Shown: one piece after another, positions 15,549 through 35,640 of the stretch
Numbering within the stretch: the first letter of the stretch is position 1
Layout of the letters: every line of letters starts with the position of its first letter
Assembly: GCA_964545345.1 (NCBI GenBank)
Contig: CAZJFE010000003.1
Span: forward strand, 1-44,096
DNA length: 44,096 nucleotides
DNA from: an uncultured Candidatus Saccharibacteria bacterium
GTDB lineage: Bacteria > Patescibacteriota > Minisyncoccia > UBA6257 > WO2-44-18
Direction of reading: 5' to 3'
Made by a program: the position numbers and the translations under genes
Notes under the pieces: generated by a model
Seen by the model: the letters and a program-made list of their open reading frames with translations, nothing else
Told to the model about the DNA's origin: nothing
Databases searched by the model: none

Positions 15549-15631
15549 GGTAAACCTCCCATCGTTGACCAGATCCCTGTTTAAGAAGCTAAATAGATAA
15601 TAACAAAACCGGCGCAAGGCCGGTTCTGAAA

Positions 15632-15837
15632 TTTGTGCCCCCGCGAGGAACAAGGGTTTCTCCGCCGACTGGCGGATCAACCTCGAACACTTTCGCCGCA
15701 CCCCGGCCCCCATCTCGGACACCTTCTGGTTTCCGAGGGCCTTCCAACACGGGGTGCGTCTGGTTCGATTCCCTAAAGACAAAAAATCAAAAATCCCGGA
15801 CAAACCGGGATGTTTGATTTTGTGCCCCCGCGAGGAA
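15632..15837 (-). repeat. tRNA-linked structured module A, bounded by a 19-bp direct repeat of the tRNA-Arg 3' end
   Basis: tttgtgcccccgcgaggaa at 15632-15650 and 15819-15837, 187 bp apart. The internal hairpin is homologous to 24871-24956. Confidence 0.85.
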
Positions 15838-15894
15838 TCGAACCTCGATCGCAAGATCCGCAATCTTGCGTCCTAACCATTGAACGACAGGGGC
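15823..15894 (-). tRNA. tRNA-Arg(GCG)
   Basis: Acceptor GCCCCTG/CGGGGGC, anticodon arm CAAGA-TTGCGGA-TCTTG, GGTTCGATTCC. Confidence 0.95.
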
Positions 15895-15928
15895 GTTTAT
15901 TTAACTTTACGTATTTTACAACTTTTTG

Positions 15929-16405
15929 CTAGAAGCGCAATAACCGCGAAAGATGTTCTACTAGAGAATCCTCATACTCAATTTCCGGAAGATGGTGATT
16001 TACTACGTGGCGGATATTCTGAACTTCCCGGTTAGGGGTCATGATTTTCAAAAAGGTGCTGAATTTTCCTTTTCGGCGTAAAACTAACTCGGAAAATCCT
16101 TCCTCCGCGTGGTGTAGCTGATGAATCGCGAAGCCCTCAAATTCATGATAGGGATGTGGCATATTGCCACCAAGTCCAACACCGGATGGTCCAATTTCAA
16201 AATCCATATCCAAAGGTTGGCGTCTCCCCCATTGGATCGTTAATATCCCGGCGATAATTATGAAAACGGCAAAGAGAAAATTACCTTTCCAGAAAGCGAA
16301 AAGCAGTAAGGCGATCATTGAGAACACCACCATCCAAGTCCATTGATGGGTTTTTTCGTGATATTCAAACTCCGGGGCTGACCAGCGAACGATCTTTTCT
16401 TCCAT
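15929..16405 (-). CDS. Conserved two-TM membrane protein with soluble C-terminal domain
   Basis: WSAPEFEYHEK N-terminus, two TMs, C-terminal LSRLLRF. Confidence 0.75.
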   Translation of the reverse strand: MEEKIVRWSAPEFEYHEKTHQWTWMVVFSMIALLLFAFWKGNFLFAVFIIIAGILTIQWGRRQPLDMDFEIGPSGVGLGGNMPHPYHEFEGFAIHQLHHAEEGFSELVLRRKGKFSTFLKIMTPNREVQNIRHVVNHHLPEIEYEDSLVEHLSRLLRF

Positions 16406-16439
16406 ATTAATATTTTACCATAAACAAAACCGCGCTTGG

Positions 16440-17399
16440 TTAGCGCGGTTTATTTTTGTTTTTGGTAACGAACTCAATCAACTTAATTACTTCTTTTGGT
16501 GTCTGACAACTTCCGTTCCGCCTGGAGGATCCACCGATTGTATTGCTCCCTCCGCAGTGTTTTCCCGGTGTCTTCCGGCCAAGCTTTTTACTCTCGCGTT
16601 TGTTGAATTCTCTGTAGATATCCGGGTTCGGGAAGTGCACGAACGGCGACATTCGCAAAAAGATATAATGGGAGATCTTTTTGTTTTCCGGATCTGGCCG
16701 AACGGTAACGCAGGCGCCTCCGTATCTTTCGCAGGCGATCAGTCGACCCTCGCGGCCGATCTCGCGGATCATCGCCCAACCCTTGCCGACATACAGCGTT
16801 TTGAATCTGGTATCGGAGGGGATCTGTCCGGATCGGCCGGCTATATATCGCGAAATACGCCTGCCAACCGCACTGATCAGAGCCACCATTTCCTTACCGG
16901 TCATCTTGCTGATTTTCCCGGCTTTTCTGGCGATGGCGTATGGCTCAAAGATCCAGTTGAGCCGCTGGCGGATTAAAGATTTCGGATCTAACGGATAGGT
17001 GCCTCCGGTGGCGTCCAAAGCGTCCACCAAATGAACCAACTGCTCAATCCGCGGATGGCTCTTACTGCCGTCAATCCGTTTATGATTCTGTAGTAGCCAG
17101 TAGGCCAGACAGACGTCCTGATCGCAATCATTCGCGTAGATTGTAGCCGTTGGCCGTCCGTTTTTTTGGAAACTTTTGAATAGCCATTGGCTGACACAGA
17201 TCAAAACTTGTCCGCTGGAACTTCTGGTCGCCAGTCGGTCAACGCCGGAATGGTGGTCCAGGTTGAGCCATGGTCCGGAGCCGTCAAAGCAGGGCGATTC
17301 TTCCACATACCCGTCTAAAGCGATGGAATAGGGTGGATTCTGTCTACGAAATTGCTTCCAGGATTTTGTTACGTCCGGCTCTACGATTAGTCGGATCAA
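16440..17399 (-). CDS. Putative DHH-like phosphoesterase
   Basis: IALDGY, LNLDHH, DCDQD motifs and C-terminal GGS; AAGGAG RBS. Confidence 0.55.
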   Translation of the reverse strand: MIRLIVEPDVTKSWKQFRRQNPPYSIALDGYVEESPCFDGSGPWLNLDHHSGVDRLATRSSSGQVLICVSQWLFKSFQKNGRPTATIYANDCDQDVCLAYWLLQNHKRIDGSKSHPRIEQLVHLVDALDATGGTYPLDPKSLIRQRLNWIFEPYAIARKAGKISKMTGKEMVALISAVGRRISRYIAGRSGQIPSDTRFKTLYVGKGWAMIREIGREGRLIACERYGGACVTVRPDPENKKISHYIFLRMSPFVHFPNPDIYREFNKRESKKLGRKTPGKHCGGSNTIGGSSRRNGSCQTPKEVIKLIEFVTKNKNKPR

Positions 17400-17434
17400 C
17401 TAGTCTCCTTCTTTCAATGAACCAACCTATTTTA

Positions 17435-18406
17435 CTACTTTTCCAATGCGTTGGCAATGATCAAATCTAGCAGTTTTGGGAACTCAATACCGGCCACTTT
17501 GGCCTCTTGGGGCAGCAAACTGGTGGCGGTCATACCGGGAATAGTGTTGATTTCCAATATCCAATAGTTTCCTTTTTCGTCTTGCATAAAATCGGAGCGC
17601 GACATGCCACTGGCCTTAATCGCTTGATGAGCTTTGAGTGACATTGTCTGAATTTTCTTGATTTCTTTGCCATCAATTCTTGGCGGGGTGATTTCCCTGG
17701 AAGCCCCGGCGGTGTACTTAGAGTAGTAATCAAAAAATCCCCGTAGTTTCGGCACGATTTCAGTCGGCGGTAACGCTTTTGGTTTTCCTTTGATTTCTAC
17801 TACGCCGCAAGTGAACTCCCGTCCTTCAATATATTGCTGGAGCATCACGTTGGGAGAAAATTTTGCCGCTTCTTCAATAGCTTTGGGTAGTTCCTGAATC
17901 TTTTTTACAAGGTTCGTGCCGGCGCTGGATCCCCGGTCAGCCGGTTTCACTACCAGAGGAATCCGGAAAGAATGCTGGCGGCCAAGAGGGAGAAACCCAT
18001 TTTTACGAATCTTCAAGATTGAGAAATCCGGCACTTTTAATCCGGCCTTCCGGAAAATCATAGATGAAGCTTCCTTATCCATTCCAATTTGGCTGGCTTT
18101 TGCTCCTGATCCGGTATACAGAATGCGGGCTTTGTCTAAAATTTTCTGAATTGTGCCGTCTTCGCCGTATTCACCATGCATAGCGATAAAGGCGACATCA
18201 AAATTATTTTTCAGCTCTTTGAGAGTAGTCGGCCACTTCCCCTTCTTGCTGATTACAATCCCCTTACCCAGATATTTTTCAGGATCCAAATTTTCCAGCA
18301 CCTTTTTTCCGGTATTTAAAGAAACCTCGTGTTCCGCGGATGGTCCACCCATCAGCACCGCTACCCGGATTTTTTCTTTATTCAGATTTTTTCTTTTTTT
18401 CAGCAT
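17435..18406 (-). CDS. ddl: D-alanine--D-alanine ligase
   Basis: GGPSAEHEVS, HGEYGEDG, GSSAG, DYYSKY, LEINTIPGMT. Confidence 0.97.
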   Translation of the reverse strand: MLKKRKNLNKEKIRVAVLMGGPSAEHEVSLNTGKKVLENLDPEKYLGKGIVISKKGKWPTTLKELKNNFDVAFIAMHGEYGEDGTIQKILDKARILYTGSGAKASQIGMDKEASSMIFRKAGLKVPDFSILKIRKNGFLPLGRQHSFRIPLVVKPADRGSSAGTNLVKKIQELPKAIEEAAKFSPNVMLQQYIEGREFTCGVVEIKGKPKALPPTEIVPKLRGFFDYYSKYTAGASREITPPRIDGKEIKKIQTMSLKAHQAIKASGMSRSDFMQDEKGNYWILEINTIPGMTATSLLPQEAKVAGIEFPKLLDLIIANALEK

Positions 18407-19592
18407 AGATTCTTTTGACTACTTTCGGCCATTTTGCCAGCGGCTCGCGTTCCAGAAAAGCTACTGTTTTTTCTTTGGAAAAATGCAGTTTGTCGGTCAG
18501 CGCTTTGAAGGAAGCGATGCCTTTGGATAAAACATCATAATATTCCCGGAAGAAAAATTGGCGGATTGATTCATGAACTGTCGCGTCAACGTCCGGAACA
18601 TTCTTTAGCAACCCAGCTTTCTTCCAATGTTTTACCAGATTAGGAATGTCGGTCTCGCGCGCTTTCACGAGATAGTCATAAATACCGTCATCCGCTTCCA
18701 TTTCCGTCAAATTAGTAAATAATTTTCGCTCATTCGCGTTCGGTTCTTTCATGGTAGCTAAAATCTCATCCCGCGCCTTATCTTCGGCCTCCACTCTGAG
18801 CGCGCGCAAATCCACTTTTAGCATTTCCTGGAATTGTTTTGTGGCCTCCCCCGGATCATTAGAAGTCACCCCCGATTCTATCAGCGCTGGGAGAAATTCT
18901 AGCGCGGAACTCGTCAGCAAGCGGTAGAAAGCGTGCTGCTCTTCATGGAGCATGGTTGATTTACTTTTCTCCGGATCCGGCATTTCCTGGACGTTCTCAA
19001 TATTAATTAATCCGGTCAGATCCGGTAATGGACTGGTCGGCAAACTGGCTCCCCCGGAAAGGTTAGACTTCCCGATCTCCTCCGGTGTGGCCTCTCTCTG
19101 AATCAGAAAAGTTTGCTGGTGCAACATGGCGTAATCTTTTGGATTGCCGCATTTGATATAGAGAGTCATCGGCCCCTTCAAGATTTCAATCCGGCCAAGA
19201 GGTTCCCGGCCGAACAAATCTTTAAACATATCCGAGTCGCGATTCGGCGATTTACTAAAACGATTCCAGAAAGTCTCAATCGCCTCATGCTTTTTCGTGT
19301 ATTTTTCCGCTAAGAGCTTAGCGATTCCCTTTTCCAGAGTGCCGAGCTTGATTTCTTTTCCCATTTCTTCAATGCGCGGGTAGAGCTCATCAGTTTTTAT
19401 ATCCGGGTTTTCTCTAATCATCCGGATCACTTCTTCCTGCAAGTCGGCGATTCCTTCTTTTTGTTCGGCCAGTTCTTTTTTAAATTCCGCGACAAGTTTC
19501 CGGCGCTCCGGTTTTGGGGCTTCTTTGATTTTCTTTATCTCTTTTTTTGGGTTGAAAACCGGACTTTCGGCTTCCGGTACTTTTTCAAACAT
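18378..19592 (-). CDS. Hypothetical protein with HExxH motif (possible zincin-like)
   Basis: 404-aa ORF containing TMLHEEQHAF. Confidence 0.65.
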   Translation of the reverse strand: MFEKVPEAESPVFNPKKEIKKIKEAPKPERRKLVAEFKKELAEQKEGIADLQEEVIRMIRENPDIKTDELYPRIEEMGKEIKLGTLEKGIAKLLAEKYTKKHEAIETFWNRFSKSPNRDSDMFKDLFGREPLGRIEILKGPMTLYIKCGNPKDYAMLHQQTFLIQREATPEEIGKSNLSGGASLPTSPLPDLTGLINIENVQEMPDPEKSKSTMLHEEQHAFYRLLTSSALEFLPALIESGVTSNDPGEATKQFQEMLKVDLRALRVEAEDKARDEILATMKEPNANERKLFTNLTEMEADDGIYDYLVKARETDIPNLVKHWKKAGLLKNVPDVDATVHESIRQFFFREYYDVLSKGIASFKALTDKLHFSKEKTVAFLEREPLAKWPKVVKRIYAEKKKKSE

Positions 19593-19639
19593 TGCCTATA
19601 TTTTAACACAAAAAACCGCCCCGTAGTGGGGCGGTTGGT

Positions 19640-20014
19640 TTAAGATTTAATTTGCACTGCTAACTCATCATAGTAAGTCATTTTCAGCGGCGGGAGATAG
19701 ATATGAAGCGACACCGCCTCTTCAATGCCATACTGACCGACTACATGAATCATTTCCGGCGTTTCCTTGAACTCGGCTCCCGGCTTATCAAATGTCCGGA
19801 GACGGCGCAGCTCTTTGGTTTTCTGATCAAAGATTTGCTCAAACAGCCCTCCGGAAATAAGAATCGTGAATCCCATTGAATCACCGTGGTCATGGGGGCG
19901 AGTTCGGGAACCGATTGGCCAAAAAATCATTACAACCTGCACCTGATCGTCGTGATAAAGAATGATTCTTTTGTACGGAGGAAATCTTCGATCAGCGCTT
20001 TCCGGATTTTCCAT
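19640..20014 (-). CDS. Cysteine dioxygenase-like cupin
   Basis: WPIG...PHDHG, IHVV, SLHIYLPP. Confidence 0.85.
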   Translation of the reverse strand: MENPESADRRFPPYKRIILYHDDQVQVVMIFWPIGSRTRPHDHGDSMGFTILISGGLFEQIFDQKTKELRRLRTFDKPGAEFKETPEMIHVVGQYGIEEAVSLHIYLPPLKMTYYDELAVQIKS

Positions 20015-20567
20015 GCGTCCCCCTTTGGGTTAAAAATGGAATCAAGCTAAAGATTTTTACGTCTACCAGAAGATTTTTCCGCGGCCGCAGAAGAAATGGA
20101 ATCAGTCGTTTAATTGGCACTTTGACCACCTTGATATCTTCTCCGCCTTCCAACTGCGGCTCTCGGACTTTTTTCGCGTCCCAGCCGAGGAAAATTACCA
20201 ATTGATCATTTTGCATTCCGGCGTTAAATGGTCCGCACATCAATCGCTTCATTTCGCCGACTTCGTAGCCCATTTCTTCCATGAGTTCACGGCGAGCGGC
20301 CGCTTCCTCGCTGGCGTCGCTTTCTTCAATCATTCCGGCGCACATCTCAATCGTCCACTTTTTCAATGGCACCCGGTAGCTTTTGGTAAGCAGGAGTTCG
20401 TTTTCGGTAGTAACCGCTCCCACTAGGGCAATCGGCCGCCGGCTGGGCCGCTCCACCACTTCCCAGGTTCCTTTATGTCCGGTTACTTTGTTACGGAATT
20501 TTCTTTCAATCACCTTCAGCCATTTTCCGGTATAAACAACCCGGTCTCTGCCAAGTTCTAATTTCAT
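19992..20567 (-). CDS. NUDIX hydrolase (ADP-ribose pyrophosphatase-like)
   Basis: Nudix box AGMIEESDASEEAAARRELMEEMGY. Confidence 0.92.
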   Translation of the reverse strand: MKLELGRDRVVYTGKWLKVIERKFRNKVTGHKGTWEVVERPSRRPIALVGAVTTENELLLTKSYRVPLKKWTIEMCAGMIEESDASEEAAARRELMEEMGYEVGEMKRLMCGPFNAGMQNDQLVIFLGWDAKKVREPQLEGGEDIKVVKVPIKRLIPFLLRPRKNLLVDVKIFSLIPFLTQRGTHGKSGKR

Positions 20568-20884
20568 CTCGCCTTCTTTTTAGCGTAGAAGATTACTCCC
20601 ATCACCATGTCCTTGCTCACTTTTGTCATTCTGCGGAAGGCAACAACTTTTTCCGGAAAATCCTCGCAGTAATTTGCCGCTTTGTTAACGCAGAGCATAA
20701 AGTTAGCGTCAAATTCCAATCCGGGCATATAGGGCAACGTGGCTAAACCACTTTCCGATTCGCATAATTTCACGTATTGATCCAGCTCGTCAGGAAAAAT
20801 CTCGTAGATCGTCTTACCGTAAACGCGCTTTTTGGTGATTATGTTCCAGCTGAATTTTTCACGAACTGGCCTGTTTTTGCTCAC
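20564..20884 (-). CDS. Hypothetical protein
   Basis: GAGGAGG RBS; 4-nt overlap with the NUDIX gene. Confidence 0.65.
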   Translation of the reverse strand: MSKNRPVREKFSWNIITKKRVYGKTIYEIFPDELDQYVKLCESESGLATLPYMPGLEFDANFMLCVNKAANYCEDFPEKVVAFRRMTKVSKDMVMGVIFYAKKKAR

Positions 20885-20977
20885 AGAACCTCCTCTTTGC
20901 TTGTTGAAGAACCATAAGGATTCTAAAACAAAAAATAGACACTAGCAATTACCGGGGGAAACGCCTGGCGAGCCGGA

Positions 20978-21361
20978 TTATTTCTTCAGATTCAAAACCG
21001 CGTCTAAAAAGTTTACGTTGGCAGACATTGGCTCGCCATATTCATTTTTTCCTTTGACTCCCTTGGCGAAAATTAAGTACAGACCAACGAAAAAATTCAC
21101 CATCGGCACAATCAGAATCAGCGCCCACCAACCGTTTTTTCCAAGATCATGCCAGCGCCGGGCGTGTAAAGAGAAAACAAAGATCGCGCCTAACAAGTTA
21201 ATGATCCCCGTGAAGACGTTGAACCGATAATGTCCGTCAGCAAAGAACATTCCCGCCATCCCGCCGAAAAATAGCCCGGCAATCAAAATACCGAGAAAAT
21301 AATTTTTCCGTCCGATTCGTCCGCTATAAAGATTTTTTATATAGTCAGTCGCTTTTTCCAT
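20978..21361 (-). CDS. DUF805 membrane protein
   Basis: SGRIGRKNYF, RRWHDLGKNGW, NEYG. Confidence 0.92.
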   Translation of the reverse strand: MEKATDYIKNLYSGRIGRKNYFLGILIAGLFFGGMAGMFFADGHYRFNVFTGIINLLGAIFVFSLHARRWHDLGKNGWWALILIVPMVNFFVGLYLIFAKGVKGKNEYGEPMSANVNFLDAVLNLKK

Positions 21362-21370
21362 TTGATCAGT

Positions 21371-22141
21371 TTATAAAGCTGTCCAACCGCCATCAACGAT
21401 CAGATTAGCGCCGGTCACATAGCTGGAGGCGTCGGAAGCCAGATACAAAACCGCCCCATTGTATTCATCTTTCTTGGCCATTCTGCCAAGAATAGTTTTG
21501 TCGCTATATTTTTTTACAAACTCTTCTTTCTGCCCGGCAAAGACTCCGCCGGGAGTAAGTGTATTTACCCGAATGCCGGTTTCACGCAAATAAGACGCCA
21601 AACTGCGGGTAAAATTAGGCACCGCTCCCTTAACGCTGGCATAGCCAATTGATTTAAATTTACCTTCGTCGTAAATCCGGTTGTCGGGCGCGACGATTCC
21701 ATATGTAGAGCAAACATTGATGATTGATCCGCTCTTTTGCTTTTTCATCACCGGGATTACCGCTTGGGCGCAAATCAACATTCCGGTCAGGCCGACGGCA
21801 ATTTCTTTCGTCCAAAGTTCAATCGGATAATCTTCATATGGGCTGAATTGCTTGGCGGATTCGTCCGTATTCGGGACAGGATTCATCGCGGCGTTGTTGA
21901 TTAATACATCCACCCGGCCGAGCTTTTTAACTACATCGGCAACCGCCGCGTTCACATCTTCTTTCTTGGTAATGTCTACTTTGTAATACAAAAAATTGGG
22001 ATCGGGAAAACCATCTTTAATATCCAGCAAAACCACCTTTGCTCCGGCCGCGTGGAGAGTTTTGGCATACTCCATCCCTAATAGGCCGGTTCCGCCGGTG
22101 ATTAAAGCAACCTTGTCTTTAAGTGAAAACATTTCGTTCAT
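21371..22141 (-). CDS. Short-chain dehydrogenase/reductase
   Basis: TGGTGLLG, NNAA, YASVK, DGGWT. Confidence 0.93.
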   Translation of the reverse strand: MNEMFSLKDKVALITGGTGLLGMEYAKTLHAAGAKVVLLDIKDGFPDPNFLYYKVDITKKEDVNAAVADVVKKLGRVDVLINNAAMNPVPNTDESAKQFSPYEDYPIELWTKEIAVGLTGMLICAQAVIPVMKKQKSGSIINVCSTYGIVAPDNRIYDEGKFKSIGYASVKGAVPNFTRSLASYLRETGIRVNTLTPGGVFAGQKEEFVKKYSDKTILGRMAKKDEYNGAVLYLASDASSYVTGANLIVDGGWTAL

Positions 22142-22142
22142 A

Positions 22143-23147
22143 TTATAGTTGTATAACTTTTTTGTCTTTTATGGAATCCTTCATTGCTAAAGCAATCTTT
22201 AGCACGTCCGCCCCTTGCTCAAAATTAATCAACGGCTTTTCCTTGCCTTCAACGCAACGGATGAACTGCTTAGTTTCGTCCAGGAACATCACATTTCTTT
22301 CAAAATCGGCCGGCTCCTTCATAATCTCCGACTGACTACCGGTCTCAAACGGGATTAGGGTCAAAGTTTTTTCCTGATAATCCCAAGTCATCCTGCCTTT
22401 ACTACCAACCACTTCAAAACGGCGTTTCGGCGGCCGTTTCACGTAATCCATATGCAAAGAAGCGGTCACTCCGGATTTAAATTGGAAAATCGCGTCCACG
22501 ATGCTGTCCACTTCAATTTTTAATTCACTTCCTTTGTTTTCAAAAGCGGATACTTGCTGGGGCATCCCGAAAAACCAATACAAGTAATCAATGTCGTGGC
22601 TCTGGGTGAGAATCACTCCTCCTCCCAAATCGGCGCGGGCGGCATAGGTTTTCAAATAATCTTCCCAAGAATGCCAATCCGGCAGATACTCCCCAATTTC
22701 CGCGTGCGCGCTTAATGGCTCGCCGATTTTTCCTTCCTCTAACCATTCTTTCATCTGCCGGAGTAACGGATGAAAACGGAAATTATAGCCAACATAGCCG
22801 ACCAAATTTTTCTTTTTAGCCAGCGCTATCAGATCGGCCACGCCGTCCAAATTATGCGATAAAGGTTTTTCAGTTAACACATGCGCGCCGGCTTCCATCG
22901 CCTTTTTCGCGGTTTCCAAATGCAATGAAGTCGGGTTTGCCAACACAACCGCGTCCGGTTTTTGCGCTAAGGCCTCATCCAGATCAAAAAAAACTTTTGG
23001 ATTATGCTCTTGGGAAAATTTATCAACAAAATCTTTGTTGGATCCCTTCTGTGATCGGTAAACAATAATTTCCCCGGCATTTAACTGTTTGAGGTTGCGG
23101 TAGTGCCGCTGACCGATTGAACCCAATCCTGTAATAAGAAATTTCAT
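22143..23147 (-). CDS. Gfo/Idh/MocA family oxidoreductase
   Basis: GLGSIG, EKP, GYNFRF, SHDID; probable start ATG 23147. Confidence 0.93.
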   Translation of the reverse strand: MKFLITGLGSIGQRHYRNLKQLNAGEIIVYRSQKGSNKDFVDKFSQEHNPKVFFDLDEALAQKPDAVVLANPTSLHLETAKKAMEAGAHVLTEKPLSHNLDGVADLIALAKKKNLVGYVGYNFRFHPLLRQMKEWLEEGKIGEPLSAHAEIGEYLPDWHSWEDYLKTYAARADLGGGVILTQSHDIDYLYWFFGMPQQVSAFENKGSELKIEVDSIVDAIFQFKSGVTASLHMDYVKRPPKRRFEVVGSKGRMTWDYQEKTLTLIPFETGSQSEIMKEPADFERNVMFLDETKQFIRCVEGKEKPLINFEQGADVLKIALAMKDSIKDKKVIQL

Positions 23148-23268
23148 CCCGTTAGAAGCAGGGTGCGCCCACTGGGCGTACCCGTGAGACAAAGACTACT
23201 TTGTTATTTACGACTGTTTTTTGTGAATTGATTGTCATGGTTATTTAAATTTAGCTGCTTCTAACGGG
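23148..23268. mobile_element. 121-bp MITE-like element
   Basis: Perfect 14-bp terminal inverted repeats CCCGTTAGAAGCAG/CTGCTTCTAACGGG, flanked by a 7-bp direct repeat ATTTCAT (23141-23147, 23269-23275). Confidence 0.85.
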
Positions 23269-23304
23269 ATTTCATTTTTATAAAAACACCCGGAATACAC
23301 CGGG

Positions 23305-23808
23305 TTAGATTTCTAGCTTGATTCCCTTGGCTTCCAGGATCATCTCCGCGATTTCACGAATCGCATGATGTCCACCGGAGGCCTTGGTTGTGTAGTGAGC
23401 AACTTCTTTTACCAACGGATGGCCGTCGGCGACCGTCAGAGCGACGCCGGCGAATTTTAAGGTTGGCAAATCATTAATGTCGTCTCCGACGAAGGCCACT
23501 TCTTCAACGGAAAGCTTTTGTTCAGCCATAATTCTTTTCAAAATCTCCAGCTTTCCTTCGCCGGTGCCGATCCCCTGCCAGACCGGAATTTTTAGCTTGT
23601 TGCATCTGGCGGTCACTACCGGATTAGTCTCTTTGGAAAGGACTCCAACGGTAATTCCGTGCTTCTTCAGCAATTCCACGCCCATGCCGTCTTTCCGACT
23701 GCAACGGACGGTCTCGTGGCCATCTTGATCAACATAAACCAGACCGTCGGTCATCACGCCGTCAAAGTCGGTCGCCAGTAATTTGATTTTGGAAAGTGTG
23801 TCTTTCAA
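23305..23808 (-). CDS. KdsC-like HAD phosphatase
   Basis: DFDGVMTDG, KDGMG, FVGDDIND, GGHHAIRE. Confidence 0.92.
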   Translation of the reverse strand: MKDTLSKIKLLATDFDGVMTDGLVYVDQDGHETVRCSRKDGMGVELLKKHGITVGVLSKETNPVVTARCNKLKIPVWQGIGTGEGKLEILKRIMAEQKLSVEEVAFVGDDINDLPTLKFAGVALTVADGHPLVKEVAHYTTKASGGHHAIREIAEMILEAKGIKLEI

Positions 23809-24035
23809 GTTCGTAGCTCCTTTATCGCCGATTTACCTTCTAGATAATACCTAATTTAAGGCAAAATGTCCACCCCACGTAATGGTTAAATGGCTTGGGG
23901 TATTCCATGCTTTTCACCATTACGTTCTATTGACTTCTACGCAAAGTATTGCTACACTATGTGCAGTAGTTCGGGGGGTTGCGGCATAGTGCTGTCCCCA
24001 TTGAAATCAAACCACCACAAGAAAGGAGAAGTGTA

Positions 24036-24653
24036 ATGCAACTCTCTAAAGAGGCGCTGTTCTTTCAGTCAGTAGAGGGAAGCATCATTCTTTACGGCAA
24101 TAGCTGGGGTCGCCCCCTACTTTTTAGCCCAGATGGACAAACGTTTTTCGAGCTAAATCAAACTGGTTTCGGAGGAACATCCGAGGAGCACGACATTTCG
24201 TTTGAAGACCCTCATAGCAATAAGAAAGGTCGTTTCTATCGAAAGGGCGATGAGCTGGAGATGGACGGCAAGGTCTACAAGAAGGTTGATGGTCGTTCCG
24301 AGGTTGAGGTTGTGCCTCTGCCAACAATCCGTCAACCAGAGTATCTTTTCGGCGCACCTGATGGAAATTACATCTACGTAAGTGCCGATAAGTTCAGATA
24401 CTCTTACGAGTCGTTCAAATTGTTCATCGGCGGCGGGGAAAAGATGAGAGAGGTCTCAATCAAACACGTTGATCGTTATAGAGATGGCGGCACTACCAAC
24501 ATCGAGACCGCCGAGGGAGTGTTGTATTCGCCCACACCTTTCCGAAGCGATGCAGTCGCGACCTGGCAAGGAGATGTCAAACTCACGAAACTCGACCCAA
24601 CTCAATTCCACATCGTCGAGACCGAAAGTGGTGTTCAACTACAACGTAACTAA
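24036..24653 (+). CDS. Hypothetical beta-rich protein
   Basis: AAAGGAG RBS before ATG 24036; TTGACT-17-TACACT promoter at ~23930-23959; hairpin plus T-tract downstream. Confidence 0.7.
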   Translation: MQLSKEALFFQSVEGSIILYGNSWGRPLLFSPDGQTFFELNQTGFGGTSEEHDISFEDPHSNKKGRFYRKGDELEMDGKVYKKVDGRSEVEVVPLPTIRQPEYLFGAPDGNYIYVSADKFRYSYESFKLFIGGGEKMREVSIKHVDRYRDGGTTNIETAEGVLYSPTPFRSDAVATWQGDVKLTKLDPTQFHIVETESGVQLQRN

Positions 24654-24812
24654 CCAGTCTAACACCCGAAGGGTGTGCGTGGAGAAATCTGCGCACACCC
24701 TATTTTTTATGGTAAAATTAAAGTGAAACGATAGGATGCCCTTTCAATATAATCCCTGTATATCCTGTTAGTATTTTCATAACTTTCATCACACCAAAAC
24801 AGATTCCAGTAA

Positions 24813-25005
24813 TGCGGAGGCGGAAATTGGATTTACGCTTCGGTTTGTGCCAGATGGCCCCAAACCTCGCCGAACCATTCGCCTCACCCCGACCCCCAGT
24901 CGGACACCTTCGGTTTCCGAATCCTTCCTGGACGGGGTGATGCTTGGTTCGAATCCATCGCCAGAAAATTTACTACCACCGCGAGGGTGGTGCGAAATTT
25001 TGCGG
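24813..25005 (-). repeat. tRNA-linked structured module B, starting with a 13-bp copy of the tRNA-Ser 3' end
   Basis: tgcggaggcggaa at 24813-24825 equals 39524-39536. Hairpin homologous to module A. Residual tgcgg at 25001, 188 bp from the first copy. Confidence 0.8.
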
Positions 25006-25155
25006 GCAGTATCGGTCTAGTACCAACCCACTGCAAGGATCCAAGGGCTTTCTTGGGGCTCATTCCAATTAGCCGTTTGAGGTGTCTCGGTCTGGGGCGT
25101 TTGTTCGGAAAACGGGACAAATGAGACACTGGAGAGGCGTTTTAATAATTCGGTC

Positions 25156-26517
25156 TCATTCTGTCTTATAAGCTTCAAATATTTTCTGAACGAGATTCCT
25201 AAGGTTACTCATGTCTGTTGCGATGCGACCTACTGGATCAAACATAAATTGTTGGCCGTCTTTTTCTATTAGAGCAAAGTGGTCAATGCCCTTTTTGGAT
25301 TTAGAGATTCTATAATTAATCCGATCCAAAATCTTTTGGTGCTCGATTAACTCCGGCGAAAACATATGCGCGATATCTTTTGGCACCGGGGGCTCGTCTT
25401 TATAAATAATTTTATCTATCTCATCGTCTGATATTGTAGACTCGTCCGTAGTTATTAAAAGTGGAGAGGCCGAAAACATTTCTCTGTGGGCATTTTTATG
25501 CCTCAGTTGACCGAAAAAATACAGCCATTCTTGAAAATCATTTGATACTATAAAATCATAAAGAGCCACATTTTTGGCTTTTATTTTTGCTAAAAATTCT
25601 TTTTTAGAATTATGTAATCCGACAGCTTTGCGATCTTGGGATTTGCTAGGGCTGTACCCAAAAGAGAATATGTCATTGATTATCCACGCCAAATGATCGA
25701 TGGCGCCCCAAAGTAAAAACAAGTAATAGTTGAGATAATAACGAATGTACCCATGTAAGTGAGGTCTTTTGTTGCCACCATCCTTAATCAACTCATGCTC
25801 CACATCGTAAATTATTTGCTGCAATTTAAAAAAGTTGATTTGATCAATTGTAGTTAAAATATCTATGTAGCGATTGTGGACGAAAGAACGAACCCTTTCC
25901 TTTAGTTCTTCGCTTGGTTGCTTCTTGTTAATTTCTGACTCCAAAGAAATTAGTACTTTATTGTGAAATTCATCAGACATGGCATGCGCTATATCGGATG
26001 AATTTATCCCATATACAGAGTTTCGGAATTTGAAATAATTATAGAATCCTTGTGTGTATGACTCAATTTTTTTATATAGCTCTAATAAATTAACAATTTG
26101 CAGCCCGTATTGTTTCTCAATCTCACCCTTCTTCGCTGTATCGAATTCATTTTCGGTTAAGTAGAGAACGCATTTATTCTTAATTGCGATGGAAAGGAAC
26201 TCATTGAGCATCTTCCCGGCCTTTCCTAATTCCGTAGGCACAACATCAGGATGGATAGGGAAAACGTCAATTACAGCTTCCGGTTGGTTTTCAATGAGAG
26301 TGACTTTATCCTGGGGAAAAAAGGTCCGTCTGACACCCAATTTATCCTCTATATATTTTGGAAAGAAAAAGGTCACATCACACAAACTAGGGTCTATTTT
26401 TGTCAGATAATCTTGAAATGTATTAATTAAAAGAATCCTCTGTTCAAGGTTTTTCAACCCTATAAACGTAAGGGGGTCGATGAATATTTTTAAATTGTTA
26501 TTGATTAGATTCCACAT
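25156..26517 (-). CDS. HEPN-domain protein (Cthe_2314-like C-terminus), possible degenerate PIN-like N-terminus
   Basis: LWGAIDHLAWIIN and LRHKNAHR (RxxxxH); AT-rich gene. Confidence 0.6.
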   Translation of the reverse strand: MWNLINNNLKIFIDPLTFIGLKNLEQRILLINTFQDYLTKIDPSLCDVTFFFPKYIEDKLGVRRTFFPQDKVTLIENQPEAVIDVFPIHPDVVPTELGKAGKMLNEFLSIAIKNKCVLYLTENEFDTAKKGEIEKQYGLQIVNLLELYKKIESYTQGFYNYFKFRNSVYGINSSDIAHAMSDEFHNKVLISLESEINKKQPSEELKERVRSFVHNRYIDILTTIDQINFFKLQQIIYDVEHELIKDGGNKRPHLHGYIRYYLNYYLFLLWGAIDHLAWIINDIFSFGYSPSKSQDRKAVGLHNSKKEFLAKIKAKNVALYDFIVSNDFQEWLYFFGQLRHKNAHREMFSASPLLITTDESTISDDEIDKIIYKDEPPVPKDIAHMFSPELIEHQKILDRINYRISKSKKGIDHFALIEKDGQQFMFDPVGRIATDMSNLRNLVQKIFEAYKTE

Positions 26518-26628
26518 TTCCGTTTCCAAAAAACAAAGTGACAAGCCCATCGATACCGAGATCAAATCTCCATCATTCTATTCATCCATCTATTAAATTG
26601 TACGGCCTCCTAATGTTATAATCCAAGC

Positions 26629-26886
26629 ATGGAAAATGGAATATTATATCGTTGCCCCATATGCGACACGCCGATGTTTGAAAAGGTTGGCCTGAAACTT
26701 TTCGTCCAACGCATTCAAAACGGCAAGACAATCAAAATGGAGATCGATAGGAAAGATAGCGAGGGCGTTATGCGCATAGGCTGTGGCTCATGCGGCAAAG
26801 GCGGCCACATTCTTGCCGCCATACACGAAATGATCGGTATAGACGAAGTGGTTTCAGTTAAAAAAGAATCTGTTGTGGAGAAATAG
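26629..26886 (+). CDS. Zinc-ribbon protein
   Basis: CPIC and CGSC pairs. Confidence 0.7.
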   Translation: MENGILYRCPICDTPMFEKVGLKLFVQRIQNGKTIKMEIDRKDSEGVMRIGCGSCGKGGHILAAIHEMIGIDEVVSVKKESVVEK

Positions 26887-27067
26887 CTTGACGCAAAAAT
26901 CTGCAGTAGTATTATAAAAGAGTAAGTTGAAAATTTAATCGAGCATCGTCTGGAACGCCCAGGCACTAGTCGCAACTTTTTTGTTGGGACCCGTGCCTGG
27001 GCGTTTTTTATTTCTCGATTAGGTCGATTACGACTTACGCATTACAAAAATTAATAAAAATAAACAA

Positions 27068-28387
27068 ATGGAAAAGAAATTAAACATCCAGTACGTTCCG
27101 GTCGCCGATTTGCGGCCAGCACCGTACAATCCTCGAGTTCACACCAAGGAGCAGGCGGATCAGCTGAAAGAGAGCATTAAAAAATTCGGCGTTGTAGATC
27201 CAATTTTGGCTAACTCCGCCCCGAACCGGAAGAACATCGTAATTGGCGGTCATTTCCGGCTGGAGGTAGTTAAAGAAATGGGATTCAAAGAAGTGCCAGT
27301 CGTCTACATAAATGTTCCCGACATCGAAAAGGAAAAAGAAATTTGCATCAGACTAAATTTGAACACGGGCGAATTTGACTGGACTCTGCTTGCGGACTTC
27401 GATGAAATCTTTCTGAAAGACGTTGGCTTCTCCTCCGAAGATTTAGACGAAGTGTTTGGCGTGGACGACAATCCGGAAATCTTTGATCTCCAAAAGGAGT
27501 TAAAGAAACTCAACATAACCAAAATTCTTATTAAGAAGGGCGACGTTTGGAAATTGGGCGAGCATCGGCTTATGTGCGGAGACTCCACCATTGAATCTGA
27601 CATCTTGAAGCTGATGGGCGGCGAAAAGGCGTCGCTAGCGTTCACGGATCCCCCGTATATTTTGGATTATCTCAAAGGAAAGAAGAAAAATGGTAAGGCC
27701 ACTGAAGGGTTCGGGTACAAGCGTGATCGCAAATACTTGGAGACCGATTCAATTCCGGAGGACTTCACAGAAAAGTGGATGGCGAACATTGCCAAGATCG
27801 CCAAAGAGGATTTCCATATCATCGTATATGAAAACTGGAAAAATATCAGGACTATCTGGGGAGAGATGGAAAAGCATTGGAAGGTTCGCAATATGATTGT
27901 TTGGCATTTGCCAAACCGGATGCAGGGCTTCGCCGCGAAGTATAGGTTCTTCAATAAGCACGACATTGCCATGGTTGGATCTTCGGGCAAATCAGAACTC
28001 CGCCTGAATTCCGAGGGAGAGTTGTTGGATAACGAATACCGGACCGCGCTTTACGCCACCGCCGGGAAGCCGCACTGGGAGGGCTACGAGAAAGGAAAGA
28101 AAATCTGCCCGACTGATTTCATTGAGTATAAATCGGCAGACGCAAAAAGTTCCGGACAAGGAATTATTTTCGGAACCAAACCAGTCGAGATATTGATTCC
28201 GTATATGAAGGTTCTAACCAAGCGTGGAGATTTAGTAGTTGAGCCGTTCGGTGGTAGCGGATCAACTCTGATCACAGCTGAGAAAATGAAACGGCGTTGT
28301 TTCCTGATGGAAAAGTCGCCGGTCTACGCCGAAGTGATAAAGCATCGCTGGGAAAAGTTGACCGGCCTTAAAGCTAAAAAACTATGA
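27068..28387 (+). CDS. ParB-like N-terminal domain fused to an N6A/N4C DNA methyltransferase (phage type)
   Basis: LRPAPYNPR...IGGHFRL, HRLMCGDST, FTDPPY, TKPVE, EPFGGSGSTL. Confidence 0.92.
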   Translation: MEKKLNIQYVPVADLRPAPYNPRVHTKEQADQLKESIKKFGVVDPILANSAPNRKNIVIGGHFRLEVVKEMGFKEVPVVYINVPDIEKEKEICIRLNLNTGEFDWTLLADFDEIFLKDVGFSSEDLDEVFGVDDNPEIFDLQKELKKLNITKILIKKGDVWKLGEHRLMCGDSTIESDILKLMGGEKASLAFTDPPYILDYLKGKKKNGKATEGFGYKRDRKYLETDSIPEDFTEKWMANIAKIAKEDFHIIVYENWKNIRTIWGEMEKHWKVRNMIVWHLPNRMQGFAAKYRFFNKHDIAMVGSSGKSELRLNSEGELLDNEYRTALYATAGKPHWEGYEKGKKICPTDFIEYKSADAKSSGQGIIFGTKPVEILIPYMKVLTKRGDLVVEPFGGSGSTLITAEKMKRRCFLMEKSPVYAEVIKHRWEKLTGLKAKKL

Positions 28388-28803
28388 AGCGGGCAACTAA
28401 AACGTTGCTCCTAGAGCAGCTGAAGAAAACTCCAATAGTTCAGATTGCTTGTGAGAAAGCTGGCGTGGGCCGGGCAACATACTATCGCTGGCGTAAGGAA
28501 GATTTGGAATTCTCTAAGATGGCAGACGAAGCCATCTTAGAGGGCAGTTTTCTCGTTAATGACATGGCCGAAACCCAGCTTATGTCGGCAATTCGCGACA
28601 GGAATCTCACCGCCATAATCTTTTGGCTGAAACATCACCACTCTCAATACACTAACCGCCTGGAGATCAGCGGCCAGATTACTCATTTGCGCAAAGAACT
28701 CACCGAAGAAGAAAAGCAGATGGTCGAAAAAGCATTGCGATTGGCAATGCCGCAGGAAAATGAAGAACCGAATCAAAACAATGGAGAACCAACTACCCAA
28801 TAA
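28384..28803 (+). CDS. HTH protein, probable terminase small subunit
   Basis: ACEKAGVGRATYYRW HTH and AIIFWLK; directly upstream of terL. Confidence 0.75.
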   Translation: MKRATKTLLLEQLKKTPIVQIACEKAGVGRATYYRWRKEDLEFSKMADEAILEGSFLVNDMAETQLMSAIRDRNLTAIIFWLKHHHSQYTNRLEISGQITHLRKELTEEEKQMVEKALRLAMPQENEEPNQNNGEPTTQ

Positions 28804-30253: not shown

Positions 30254-30264
30254 AAGCTCCCAGC

Positions 30265-30810
30265 CTATTCAAATTTTATATTCAGGCTACCCTTCTTAAT
30301 TTTCTCCGGATCCGGAACCCCTTTCACTAGGCTAAGAACGAGCTTCCAAAGATATGGATTCTTTACCATAAAGAAAGAGCTTTTTGATTTTCCTTCAAAT
30401 GAAATTTCGAGTCCGTCGGTGTAGATTTCTATTGAGAGCATTTTATCTAAGTCTAATGATTTGTTTTCAATCATCCCGTCAAAGACGAGTCTTTTATTGG
30501 TTAGGATAAGAGCCCCGCTATCTATATCTCTAAGCTCGGGCAGACTTCTTGATTCACTCTGGCCACCACCGACGTATACTCCTTTGAACAATCGAACGCC
30601 CATCCCTCCGCCACTTCTCTTACTAACCATCCGGACTTCTTTTAGCGGCACTTTTTCTTCTGAGAAAAAAGCTTTTTCGTCTTTCTTCAATAAGATAGAT
30701 GTTTGCACTGGTCGGAGGCCGCCATTTTGTTCTGTGCTAGAAACAAAATCCTGCGCCTCCTTTATCTTTTCTTCCTTCTTATTGTTTTTAAATATTGAGA
30801 ATAAGCCCAT
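30265..30810 (-). CDS. Hypothetical protein (PH-like fold suspected)
   Basis: IDSGALILTNKRLVFDG motif; Gly-rich GMGVRLFKGVYVGGG. Confidence 0.7.
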   Translation of the reverse strand: MGLFSIFKNNKKEEKIKEAQDFVSSTEQNGGLRPVQTSILLKKDEKAFFSEEKVPLKEVRMVSKRSGGGMGVRLFKGVYVGGGQSESRSLPELRDIDSGALILTNKRLVFDGMIENKSLDLDKMLSIEIYTDGLEISFEGKSKSSFFMVKNPYLWKLVLSLVKGVPDPEKIKKGSLNIKFE

Positions 30811-30817
30811 TTTATTT

Positions 30818-31453: not shown

Positions 31454-31752
31454 ACTTTTTATTATTAATTTTTAATGTGCTGGCGAGAACATAAAACTCC
31501 CCGCCAGCGATCTCTTGCGAGACCCACATCCCTTTCGAGATGTGACTATCCCTAGTGCTCTGACGAGGAGTTTGATACTAGGGATAGATTCTTAGGCCAT
31601 ATCCTACGAGGATCGTAGGGGTTAGGTCTGCTTTATAGCTATTAAGTTGTAAATACATTTTAACTTACATACGGAACCTTGCGAAGTCCTTGCAACTACG
31701 GCCTGTACTGTTTTATAAACAGGCAGCTCAAGTTATTATTCTTATAAGAAAT

Positions 31753-32665: not shown

Positions 32666-32717
32666 ACCAACGCCACTCTGGACTTCATCGCGGGGTTGCG
32701 TCATCCATTGTCTTGCA

Positions 32718-35354: not shown

Positions 35355-35359
35355 AGGGT

Positions 35360-35484
35360 TTGCGGACGGCGAGGAACCGGTAGTTCGCATTCCAGTCGTT
35401 GTCATACCAGTTCAGGTTCAGCTTGCGTTCGCTGTTGAAGTACAGGTACGGCACGTTGCGGTTACCGTTCGAGTCCCGCCAGGT
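35360..35484 (-). ncRNA. DGR template repeat (TR)
   Basis: Ungapped match to both VRs with differences almost only at TR adenines; 8 AAC and 1 AAT codons in the target frame. Confidence 0.96.
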
Positions 35485-35634: not shown

Positions 35635-35640
35635 ATTATA
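35635..35640 (-). promoter_or_regulatory. Candidate -10 box for a TR(-RT) transcript
   Basis: Perfect TATAAT just past the target-1 terminator, ~150 nt upstream of TR; no clear -35. Confidence 0.45.

Follow-up and report, generated by a model that had tools for sequence, protein, structure and literature searches.

Repeat cassettes behind tRNA genes of Parcubacteria that resemble in architecture the tRNA-linked repeats of Escherichia coli

Two modules in a 44,096-nucleotide stretch of Parcubacteria DNA, the whole of which is called the window, are built on one plan around copies of a tRNA 3′ end. Our working interpretation, held at about even confidence, is that they are members of a lineage-specific family of tRNA-linked repeat cassettes, the Parcubacteria counterpart, by architecture, of the RtT or tRNA-linked repeats (TLRs) of E. 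coli, and that the cassettes are co-transcribed with the tRNA and turned over by host recombination. The cassettes are 125–200 nt long, contain no open reading frame, and follow a same-strand tRNA or tmRNA gene at a distance of 7–66 nt. About 60 copies, from one bacterial order, are distributed over more than 15 host tRNA species. In these groundwater bacteria with tiny genomes, approximately one-fifth of the tRNA genes are followed by a cassette, and the 857-kb genome from which the window originates (G000, 85.6% complete) contains seven copies.

A cassette usually opens with a terminator-like hairpin, followed by an inverted copy of the T-arm, a conserved core of two helices (P1 and P2) with purine-rich loops, and a direct copy that spans the tRNA from its T-loop through its 3′ end; a second terminator often closes the unit. 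The direct copy is split at T-loop position 57–59 by a variable hairpin, P3. No family of Rfam 15 matches the cassettes at or above its gathering threshold, and a literature search for such a cassette in Patescibacteria returned no relevant description. The original prediction of a family that could not be assigned to a named one holds with respect to Rfam, but a named analogue of the same architecture exists in the E. coli RtT/TLR. In our reading, the family would be a structural variant of tRNA-linked repeats that has not been described before, the E. coli architecture being already known.

Organization of the two cassettes in the window

Cassette A is positioned directly behind tRNA-Arg(GCG), as had been predicted, and the predicted repeat spacing of 187 corresponds to an exact 19-nt repeat (Table 1). 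The purine-rich loops between P1 and P2 read GGAAGG on one side and GGGGG on the other. The spacer at 15773–15782 resembles a complement of the acceptor 3′ strand that has decayed. In other cassettes, the copy of the 5′ half of the T-loop tracks local tRNA variants such as TTCAA and TCCGA. No promoter-like site was found in 15400–16100. Contigs of three DNA runs gave no clean empty-site or excision joint, and the contig joints near 15604–15785 trace to other cassette loci. Hairpins homologous to hairpin 1 of cassette A occur in cassettes of other tRNAs.

Table 1. Features of cassettes A and B and of the associated tRNA genes and island, in window coordinates
Feature	Position	Strand	Basis
tRNA-Arg(GCG), host gene of cassette A	15823..15894	minus	ARAGORN; Rfam 62.8 bits
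Cassette A, repeat copy 1: last 15 nt of tRNA-Arg and 4 flanking nt	15819–15837	minus	exact repeat
Cassette A, hairpin 1, terminator-like, A-tract on one side and T-tract on the other	15783..15821	minus	terminator-like site 15811–15793; fold
Cassette A, inverted T-arm box GGAATCGAACC	15762..15772	minus	exact complement of tRNA-Arg GGTTCGATTCC
Cassette A, conserved core	15695..15760	minus	covariance model R1, 101.1 bits; compensatory changes
Cassette A, P1, 11-bp stem	15750–15760 with 15695–15705	minus	model R1
Cassette A, P2, 9-bp hairpin with conserved A.G mismatch	15715–15736	minus	model R1
Cassette A, direct copy of T-loop 5′ half (GTTCGA)	15683..15688	minus	pairs with inverted box (P0)
Cassette A, P3, variable hairpin inside T-loop copy, ends CCTTG	15651..15682	minus	holds small palindrome CCGCCAGTCGGCGG
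Cassette A, repeat copy 2: tRNA-Arg positions 59–73 and CAAA	15632..15650	minus	identical to 15819–15837
Second terminator-like hairpin closing the cassette A unit	15604..15628	minus	terminator scan
Cassette B, whole	24813..25001	minus	model R1, 85 bits
Cassette B, hairpin 1	24965–25001	minus	sequence
Cassette B, inverted box GGATTCGAACC	24946–24956	minus	sequence
Cassette B, core	24870–24945	minus	model R1
Cassette B, P3	24835–24869	minus	sequence
Cassette B, AAATCC and 3-nt AAT insert	24826–24834	minus	sequence
Cassette B, 13-nt copy of tRNA-Ser(GCT) 3′ end	24813–24825	minus	sequence comparison
Prophage-like island between tRNA-Ser(GCT) and cassette B	25005..39524	minus	Pfam; Rfam
tRNA-Ser(GCT), source of the T-arm and 3′ end copied in cassette B	39526..39612	minus	ARAGORN; Rfam

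The cores of the two cassettes (15684–15772 and 24871–24956) are alike, as predicted, with 80% identity over 90 aligned columns. The original prediction had also placed module B behind a tRNA-Ser gene and between duplicated tRNA ends. ARAGORN and Rfam find no tRNA at 24600–25300, the sequence near 25005 matches over about 5 bases only, and cassette B carries a single 13-nt copy. The proposal of a shared tRNA-linked module at both sites was thus borne out for the core, module A, the stems, and the T-arm match, but not for the placement of module B. The tRNA-Ser(GCT) gene is located 14.5 kb from cassette B, in the same orientation, across a prophage-like island that encodes an XRE regulator, a ParB-methylase, a terminase, a large serine recombinase, and a reverse transcriptase, together with a LOOT RNA (Pfam, Rfam). 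In another genome (locus L052), the same island end adjoins a cassette of the Ser(GCT) type. Since tRNA-Ser(GCT) and its cassette are uninterrupted and without the island at two further loci (L026 and L020), the island is a later insertion.

The late arrival of the island bears on the idea that the cassettes are decaying attR scars of larger islands or prophages that were once integrated in tRNA genes and later deleted. A tRNA 3′-end repeat from the T-loop onward is a signature of tRNA-integrating elements, and a 14.5-kb island has cassette B at its far end. The attL and attR repeats of such islands and prophages, with their tyrosine integrases and T-loop sublocation, are reportedly the subject of work by Williams in 2002; like the cassettes, they carry the tRNA 3′ end, from the T-loop on, as a direct repeat, affect both tRNA and tmRNA targets, and leave the tRNA intact. 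In contrast, the cassettes have no integrase and no cargo, their insert is just 125–200 nt long, they contain the additional inverted T-arm copy, and the same insert is found at more than 15 tRNA species with matching ends. Independent scars would not share a core of approximately 90 nt with compensatory changes that recurs about 60 times, and no integrase was found beyond a single housekeeping-type recombinase. An origin of the cassettes as attR scars, which was already disfavored, is very improbable.

Match to the local tRNA and covariation of the core

Covariance-model searches of the genome and its relatives confirmed the predicted structured, non-coding, tRNA-linked family. Six of the seven matches in G000 follow a same-strand tRNA gene at a distance of 42–52 nt, and such positions make up well under 1% of the genome; the seventh, cassette B, is split off by the island. 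All ten copies in G002, a genome with 46 tRNAs in total, follow nine tRNAs and the tmRNA. A same-strand tRNA or tmRNA is located upstream of 30/30 matches at the loci of relatives and of 9/9 further loci from other families of the order. Outside the order, the same core is found without T-arm flanks; it is antisense to the neighboring tRNA at least twice (L039 and L044), and at L048/L050 it is part of a larger repeat with no adjoining tRNA.

In 42 cassette–tRNA pairs, the direct copy matches its own tRNA exactly over a median of 16 nt, compared to 6 nt for other tRNAs. The match is exact over 12–23 nt, the length range of the direct repeat, in 33 of the pairs (19 nt in cassette A), and a 3-nt insert is often present. 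The inverted T-arm box had been suspected to track its own tRNA, a claim doubted as resting on one base. The agreement is real: the median exact match is 11 nt to the own tRNA and 7 nt to others in the same 42 pairs. Both copies follow the own tRNA even in stem bases specific to that tRNA and, for tmRNA, in its particular T-arm. A survey of the 96 tRNA and tmRNA genes in G000 and G002 recovered one weak case of a core-less inverted T-arm box. Such boxes would favor a purely local origin of the cassettes, and their near-absence gives no such support.

Tandem inversion duplications form locally, by snap-back at quasi-palindromes. They resemble the cassettes in their direct–inverted–direct segments with hairpins at both junctions (here the terminator hairpin and the T-arm or core). 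However, duplications of local origin would not carry a common 90-nt core, and the flanks beyond the repeat are not duplicated in the cassettes.

The predicted compensatory stem CACCCCG..CGGGGTG and the inner hairpin covary across the family. Both-sided changes occur in 18 of 26 base pairs, a number reached by none of 500 shuffles, and the covariation and loop conservation span several families of the order. According to hand-registered counts, 537/561 cells of P1 are Watson–Crick pairs, with three to four pair types at three positions, and P2 contains 432/486 Watson–Crick cells and an A.G mismatch in 51/54 copies. The MAFFT alignments A2 and A3 were misregistered and were excluded from the counts. 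In the hand-registered helices, there is no preference for G.U pairs (7 G.U versus 6 A.C in P1; 1 versus 0 in P2). Such a lack of G.U bias is not typical of functional RNAs and is equally compatible with a DNA hairpin. An apparent excess of 67 G.U over 10 A.C pairs in a model-fitted alignment, which had pointed to an RNA on the tRNA strand, was rejected as an alignment artifact after hand re-registering of the helices.

The cassettes could be functional RNAs tailored to their tRNAs, in which the inverted box and the acceptor-strand copy pair with the precursor or mature form of the own tRNA and control its processing, folding, or stability, with selection keeping the copies matched. The tracking of the own tRNA by both copies, including the tmRNA-specific T-arms, is consistent with this function, as are the conserved loops and the core covariation over several families. 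The spacer pairs better with its own acceptor-strand copy than with those of other cassettes (−3.73 versus −2.74 kcal/mol; 5 of 2000 permutations reach the own value), and in the Arg/Lys subfamily the pairing uses G.U pairs that are present solely on the tRNA-sense strand. However, the G.U-dependent pairing stems from this single related subfamily, and near-identical cores retain one inverted box behind different tRNAs even when it is mismatched. Only about one-fifth of tRNAs are occupied and the set is almost wholly different between two genomes of one genus, and therefore no particular tRNA can depend on its cassette. In E. coli, CsrA has been shown to be the partner of rrn TLRs; a search of 21 genomes of the family did not recover it, and a role as a CsrA sponge, as for E. 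coli RrA/B/F, was rejected for this reason. A tRNA-tailored regulatory RNA is quite unlikely.

Comparison with known repeats, turnover, and possible routes of spread

E. coli tRNA-linked repeats have been known since 1978. The units of the tyrT–tyrV operon (rttR; RF00391) are positioned directly behind a tRNA (or, for other TLRs, rRNA) gene in the same orientation, end in a copy of the upstream gene 3′ end (18–19 nt there, 12–23 nt here), and form tandem arrays with a dual-terminator layout, like the Parcubacteria cassettes. The E. coli units are part of the transcription unit of the gene that they follow, as the cassettes probably are. The order of parts in the tyrV unit also matches: a spacer, an inverted T-arm copy (GGGGAAGGAT), a direct T-arm half (AAGGTTCGA), a hairpin insert, and a 19-nt tail copy from the T-loop. 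E. coli TLRs carry 18–19 bp identical to the 3′ end of the upstream gene, and those of rrn operons arise when the first terminator is read through (PMC8144298); that source assigns the repeats neither function nor origin. Unlike the Parcubacteria cassettes, the E. coli RtT unit has only about 7–14 nt in place of the 65-nt covarying P1–P2 core, and the strong differences in occupancy between genomes of one genus set the cassettes apart from E. coli TLRs. The RtT model RF00391 has no match in G000 at E up to 1, with its control recovered in E. coli, and RtT is absent from the Rfam matches at E up to 10 around modules A and B. Model R1 finds nothing real at the E. coli locus (best score 11.2 bits). 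The link to E. coli TLRs therefore rests on architecture, not on demonstrated homology.

Only one of 16 occupied sites is common to G000 and G002, which belong to one genus, and therefore cassettes come and go. Empty sites, proposed earlier as a check, were found: the Ser–Ala and Lys–Val tRNA pairs abut in G002 and have a cassette between them in G000, G004, and L046. Insertion places within the same tRNA operon differ between genomes, and cassettes also occur in tandem and nested. The core, hairpin 1, and P3 are swapped between cassettes as a mosaic, with exchange of P3 alleles. Nearly identical cores follow tRNA-Arg(GCG) in G003 and tRNA-Ala(TGC) in G004; the hairpin 1 and P3 of these two cassettes are unrelated. 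In a tree of the cores, 22 of 39 inner forks are open, and the tRNA label changes 26 times compared to a shuffled mean of 30.8; this weak clustering by tRNA is partly circular because the T-arm boxes were included in the alignment.

Gain and loss within a genus fit the predicted tRNA-targeting mini-element, but its transposition by an enzyme is unsupported, as no dedicated recombinase, transposase, or reverse transcriptase among those tested tracks the cassettes. Y1 (HUH) transposase (PF01797) has no match in the five genomes of the cassette-rich genus (G000–G004) and is present in several cassette-free genomes. Cas1 (PF01867) was found in 0/21 genomes of the family, and IS110-type DEDD transposase (PF01548) has no match in G000, the one genome searched for it and 85.6% complete. 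For tyrosine recombinase (PF00589), 41 genomes were searched: 36, among them G000 and G002, have a single match that passes the cut-off and 5 have two, irrespective of cassettes. Reverse transcriptase is encoded by 8/15 genomes with cassettes and 9/26 without. REP/REPIN and IS200/IS605-derived mini-elements are, like the cassettes, short, imperfectly palindromic, multi-copy, and non-coding, and their stems pair without G.U bias. In contrast to the cassettes, REPs are not bound to tRNA ends, nor do they duplicate their flanking sequence, and the Y1 transposase or RAYT that would move them was not found in the cassette-rich genus.

Movement in trans by an unrecognized dedicated enzyme is nevertheless conceivable, if doubtful. 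Such an enzyme would cleave one strand within the T-loop and the other just beyond the tRNA 3′ end; the 12–23-nt repeat would then be a target-site duplication or an att identity block, and the inverted box a terminal repeat or guide. Everything common to cassettes at different tRNAs lies within the direct repeats, and the differing insertion places, the tandem and nested copies, and the lack of G.U bias expected of DNA hairpins agree with such an element. In addition, integrases and casposons classically target tRNA and tmRNA genes. Besides the distribution of the enzymes, the variable repeat length with its frequent 3-nt insert speaks against the non-autonomous element, and a simple target duplication leaves unexplained why the T-loop half upstream of P3 also tracks the local tRNA.

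In the interpretation that we favor, turnover by host recombination, a cassette and its tRNA would share one transcript, formed by read-through where hairpin 1 is present and directly where it is missing. The constant orientation, the position of some cassettes within tRNA operons, and the lack of a promoter-like site around cassette A point to co-transcription, although hairpin 1 scores as an intrinsic terminator and would restrict read-through. The tRNA-processing enzymes may release the cassette as a stable folded RNA, which has been shown for E. coli TLRs. At the DNA level, the two direct repeats could recombine and thereby remove it. Spread among tRNA loci may proceed by host recombination or template switching, with the near-universal T-loop sequence as homology, and gene conversion or quasi-palindrome correction would keep both copies, inverted and direct, in agreement with the local tRNA. 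However, moves between tRNAs with unlike acceptor stems are hard to account for by host recombination alone, and the occurrence of the core without T-arm flanks outside the order also counts against this interpretation.

A more speculative mechanism, which we regard as unlikely, assigns the spread to the core itself. P1–P2 would be the active part of a new self-propagating tRNA-end cassette, an RNA or single-stranded DNA hairpin bounded by T-loop-like inverted repeats, for which the near-universal T-loop of any tRNA or tmRNA gene serves as a landing pad. Host replication and repair would suffice, copying of the local tail to both sides would be incidental, and E. coli TLRs would be core-less relics. 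If true, self-propagation of the core would provide a mechanism for a 45-year-old unexplained class of repeats.

For genome annotation, the cassettes matter as mimics of att sites of integrated islands and of partial tRNA genes. The occupancy of about one-fifth of tRNA genes, combined with fast turnover, provides many natural pairs of occupied and empty sites for working out the mechanism. That an E. coli-like architecture, built on a different, strongly conserved and covarying core, occurs in ultra-small bacteria of a distant phylum suggests a general process at tRNA 3′ ends rather than an enterobacterial oddity.

Architecture of the tRNA-linked cassettes

Modules A and B were originally predicted to be copies of one structured module located behind two different tRNAs, each ending in a duplicate of the 3′ end of its tRNA, and this is right for the most part. 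The module cores share 80% identity over 90 alignment columns. Among the four tRNA genes detected in the window by ARAGORN and Rfam, tRNA-Arg(GCG) directly precedes module A, which is framed by an exact 19-nt repeat composed of the final 15 nt of the tRNA followed by CAAA. Neither the position behind a tRNA nor the duplication of its end holds for module B: no tRNA-like sequence was detected at 24600-25300 by ARAGORN or Rfam, and the module contains a single 13-nt tail copy, which matches the end of tRNA-Ser(GCT) on its 3′ side exactly.

The source genome (G000; 857 kb, 77 contigs, of which the window is C3, 47% G+C, 85.6% completeness) contains exactly seven copies of the cassette, identified by BLAST and by R1, a covariance model of the cassette core. 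Followed in the tRNA direction, the parts have the same order in all seven. Behind the tRNA comes hairpin 1, which is terminator-like and bears both an A-tract and a T-tract; a short spacer separates it from the T-arm's inverted copy, and the 11-bp stem P1 follows. Next come a purine-rich loop with GGAAGG, the 9-bp hairpin P2 with a conserved A·G mismatch, a GGGGG-bearing loop, and the return strand of P1. The cassette continues with the T-loop's 5′ half as a direct copy, which together with the inverted box constitutes P0, and the variable hairpin P3. It ends with the remaining T-loop, the 3′ strands of the T-stem and acceptor, and up to about six bases flanking the tRNA gene. In several copies, 3 nt are inserted within the T-stem portion of the direct copy, and a second terminator-like hairpin often lies next after the cassette. 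The minimum-free-energy fold of cassette A (z = -3.9) recovers hairpin 1, P0, P1, P2, and P3.

Features of the window and of other contigs (C, contigs of G000; G002, related genome)
Feature	Location	Strand	Source or remark
tRNA-Arg(GCG)	15823-15894	-	ARAGORN, Rfam
Exact 19-nt repeat framing module A	15632-15650 and 15819-15837		sequence comparison
CCGCCA..TGGCGG palindrome	about 15660-15675		in P3 of cassette A
tRNA-tail copy of module B	24813-24825		13 nt
tRNA-Ser(GCT)	39526-39612		same orientation as module B
Prophage-like island	25005-39524		14.5 kb
Non-coding island end	25005-25150		final ~150 nt of island
LOOT RNA	31509-31628	-	Rfam RF03000, 82.8 bits; in island
Large serine recombinase	32718-34034		in island
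Reverse transcriptase	34002-35000		in island
XRE regulator/repressor	39070-39417		in island
Second cassette body	C1:12600-12830; C18:7270-7510; C62:480-653; C65:1450-1654; G002 locus L080		
Third core type	C33:2870-3026		behind tRNA-Val(GAC); own inverted T-arm box, 15-nt tail copy
CCTGCCTGCCGGCAGGCAGG palindrome	C1:12715; C1:12811; C18:7360; C41:3466; C65:1527		
Partial tRNA-like 3′ half	C2:32865-32930		directly behind tRNA-Pro(CGG)
tRNA with four-base anticodon (ctgc)	C16:14845		identity unassigned by ARAGORN

Linkage of cassettes to their own tRNAs

The resemblance of the inverted box to the T-arm of its own tRNA, which the original prediction allowed might be chance, is strong. In 42 cassette-tRNA pairs, the longest exact match of the box has a median length of 11 nt to the own tRNA and 7 nt to others; for the distal region the corresponding medians are 16 nt against the tail of the own tRNA and 6 nt against other tRNAs. 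Bases specific to individual tRNAs are copied, including GCCGGGAATCGAACC behind tRNA-Pro, the T-loop TTCAA in cassettes of tmRNA and tRNA-Leu(TAG), and a TCCGA loop in one tRNA-Val copy. For eight of the 50 ARAGORN genes of G000, a stretch of at least 11 nt from the last 20 nt of the gene recurs exactly within 600 nt downstream; no gene has such a copy upstream.

Six of the seven copies in G000 are positioned 42–52 nt downstream of a tRNA on the same strand, the remaining one being B. All ten copies in the related genome G002 (97% complete, six contigs, 46 tRNAs) lie 12–50 nt downstream of nine tRNAs and the tmRNA. The association extends to further copies: among loci drawn from 14 further genomes of the family, 30/30 profile hits have a tRNA or tmRNA upstream on their own strand, within 66 nt in 27 of them. 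At locus L035, the 3′ end of a tRNA is visible directly upstream of the cassette, and ARAGORN missed this gene because most of it is masked by N; at L030 and L102, a degenerate second tRNA copy intervenes between tRNA and cassette. An order-wide sample of 151 genomes gave matches in 15 genomes from seven families, and all nine new loci inspected are behind a tRNA and share its orientation. More than 15 tRNA species are used, in addition to tmRNA.

Beyond the order, 185,579 species were scanned for exact matches to the pattern, and the core was detected in a few more Parcubacteria. The T-arm flanks are absent at six of these loci; at two of the six, L039 and L044, the core runs antisense to the tRNA nearest it. 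In contigs of Candidatus Paceibacter sp. (L048, L050), the P1-P2 core is inside a ~250-nt repeat with 20-nt inverted repeats at its ends, which occurs twice in inverted orientation in one genome and has no adjoining tRNA.

The prophage-like island sits exactly between tRNA-Ser(GCT) and cassette B. It also codes for a ParB-methylase and terminase subunits. In two relatives (L026, L020), the cassette is directly behind tRNA-Ser(GCT), and in a third genome (L052) a matching island end abuts a Ser(GCT)-type cassette. These arrangements indicate that B is an ordinary cassette that was later parted from its tRNA by a site-specific island. It is very improbable that the cassettes themselves are scars left by lost islands. 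CCGCA terminates both island junctions, and the non-coding island end is conserved in L052. The LOOT RNA and the reverse transcriptase gene of the island are about 2.4 kb apart, and many relatives have similar reverse transcriptases of ~330 aa.

Paired helices with compensatory changes

In a model-fitted alignment of 47 distinct copies, changes on both sides were found in 18 of 26 pairs, and the observed values were unmatched in 500 shuffles. P0 does not provide independent evidence, because its two strands copy one tRNA. Registration by hand gave 537 Watson-Crick, seven G·U, six A·C, and 11 other cells for P1 (51 copies), and 432 Watson-Crick, one G·U, and no A·C cells for P2 (54 copies), in which the A·G mismatch is retained in 51/54 copies. 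Fully compensated variants also occur, such as TCGGA../..TCCGA, TAAGA../..TCTTA, and TGGAG../..CTCCA. Therefore, P1 and P2, be they RNA or DNA hairpins, are real, and are either under selection or kept paired by a copying process. A count of 67 G·U versus 10 A·C pairs, considered as proof of RNA from the tRNA strand, was rejected after the hand registration of P1 and P2, since the alignment underlying the model was partly out of register.

The remaining hint of strand specificity comes from the spacer ahead of the inverted box, which pairs with its own acceptor-strand copy at -3.73 kcal/mol and with others at -2.74 kcal/mol, a difference reached by 5/2000 permutations. In the Arg/Lys subfamily this pairing relies on G·U pairs, which amount to little more than one observation because the copies are related.

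Rapid gain, loss and mosaic exchange of cassettes

The genomes G000 and G002 belong to one genus and have one of 16 occupied sites in common, that of tRNA-Arg(TCG). Empty sites exist: in G002, tRNA-Ser(CGA) abuts tRNA-Ala and tRNA-Lys(CTT) abuts tRNA-Val, whereas the Ser-Ala interval holds a cassette in G000 and the related genome G004, and the Lys-Val interval in L046. The cassette is after tRNA-Val in the related genome G003, and after tRNA-Lys, with Val inverted, in G000. The empty Ser-Ala junction is too tight for a terminator, so hairpin 1 must have come with the cassette. That the cassette is a functional RNA specific to its tRNA is weakened by this patchy occupancy, differing between genomes, and we regard it as quite unlikely.

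Cassettes exchange parts. The cores of the G003 Arg(GCG) and G004 Ala(TGC) cassettes differ at two to three positions, and their hairpins 1 and P3 are unrelated; the former shares hairpin 1, core, and P3 with the G002 Arg(TCG) cassette, the differences being confined to the repeats. The right end, CCTG or CCTTG before the tRNA tail, is also used by other cassette bodies, among them the third core behind tRNA-Val(GAC). A second, unrelated body begins with GCTCAAACAGTTCTCTCGC and ends with CCTG and the copied tail of the tRNA or tmRNA. It is found behind tmRNA, behind tRNA-Arg(TCT), and in tandem after the Arg(TCG) cassette; it can stand by itself or follow an R1 cassette in tandem. In G000, the cassette of the tmRNA is chimeric and retains the 3′ part of the R1 core. 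A motif resembling the third core type is located upstream of the core in L054.

The perfect 20-nt palindrome CCTGCCTGCCGGCAGGCAGG has five copies in G000, four of them within tRNA-linked cassettes, and is also found in P2 of L018 and adjoining a tRNA in L035. The position of the smaller palindrome CCGCCA..TGGCGG varies among cassettes. The partial tRNA-like half in G000 consists of a T-arm and acceptor strand, followed by a terminator; behind tRNA-Pro(CGG) of G002, an R1 cassette is in its place.

A protein tracking the cassettes was sought among a handful of protein families in 41 genomes. IS110-type transposase is absent from G000, Y1/HUH transposase from all five genomes of the cassette-rich genus, although it is found in cassette-free relatives, and neither Cas1 nor CsrA was found in 21 genomes of the family. 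Tyrosine recombinase gave one match above the cut-off in 36/41 genomes and two in the other five, regardless of cassettes. Reverse transcriptase is present in 8/15 genomes with cassettes and 9/26 without. A dedicated but unrecognised enzyme producing a long target duplication is possible, but we consider it doubtful.

An architectural analogue is provided by the tRNA-linked repeats (TLR, or RtT; RF00391) of E. coli. The passages on these repeats in PMC8144298 describe 22 of them at ten loci in strain K-12, give as their hallmark 18–19 bp shared exactly with the tRNA or rRNA upstream, at its 3′ end, and state that no function has been known for them since 1978. The three behind rrn operons are transcribed when a first terminator is read through and are also processed close to the repeat (PMC8144298). 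Each 178-nt unit of tyrT-tyrV-rttR contains, in order, a spacer, GGGGAAGGAT, which is the complement of ATCCTTCCCC of tRNA-Tyr, AAGGTTCGA, which is the T-arm's 5′ half, a hairpin of ~66 nt, and a copy of 19 nt (AATCC..CCA) starting within the T-loop. The Parcubacteria cassette has the same order of parts, plus the P1-P2 core that the E. coli unit lacks. The search of G000 with RF00391 gave no match, and that of the E. coli locus with R1 no real match. Because homology is undetectable, we class the cassettes with RtT in kind, but not as members of its family.

We give about an even chance to the reading, taken as a whole, that the cassettes are co-transcribed with their tRNAs and driven by host recombination. 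The cassette would be carried in the tRNA transcription unit and freed by tRNA-processing enzymes. It could be lost cleanly if the two direct repeats recombined, and its spread may be due to template switching or host recombination for which the near-universal T-loop sequence provides the seed. Conversion would keep the tRNA matched to the direct and inverted copies near it. New here are the family-wide census, the finding that an island separated B from its tRNA, the enzyme profile with its negative outcome, the strand test by hand registration, and the agreement with the E. coli RtT unit part by part.
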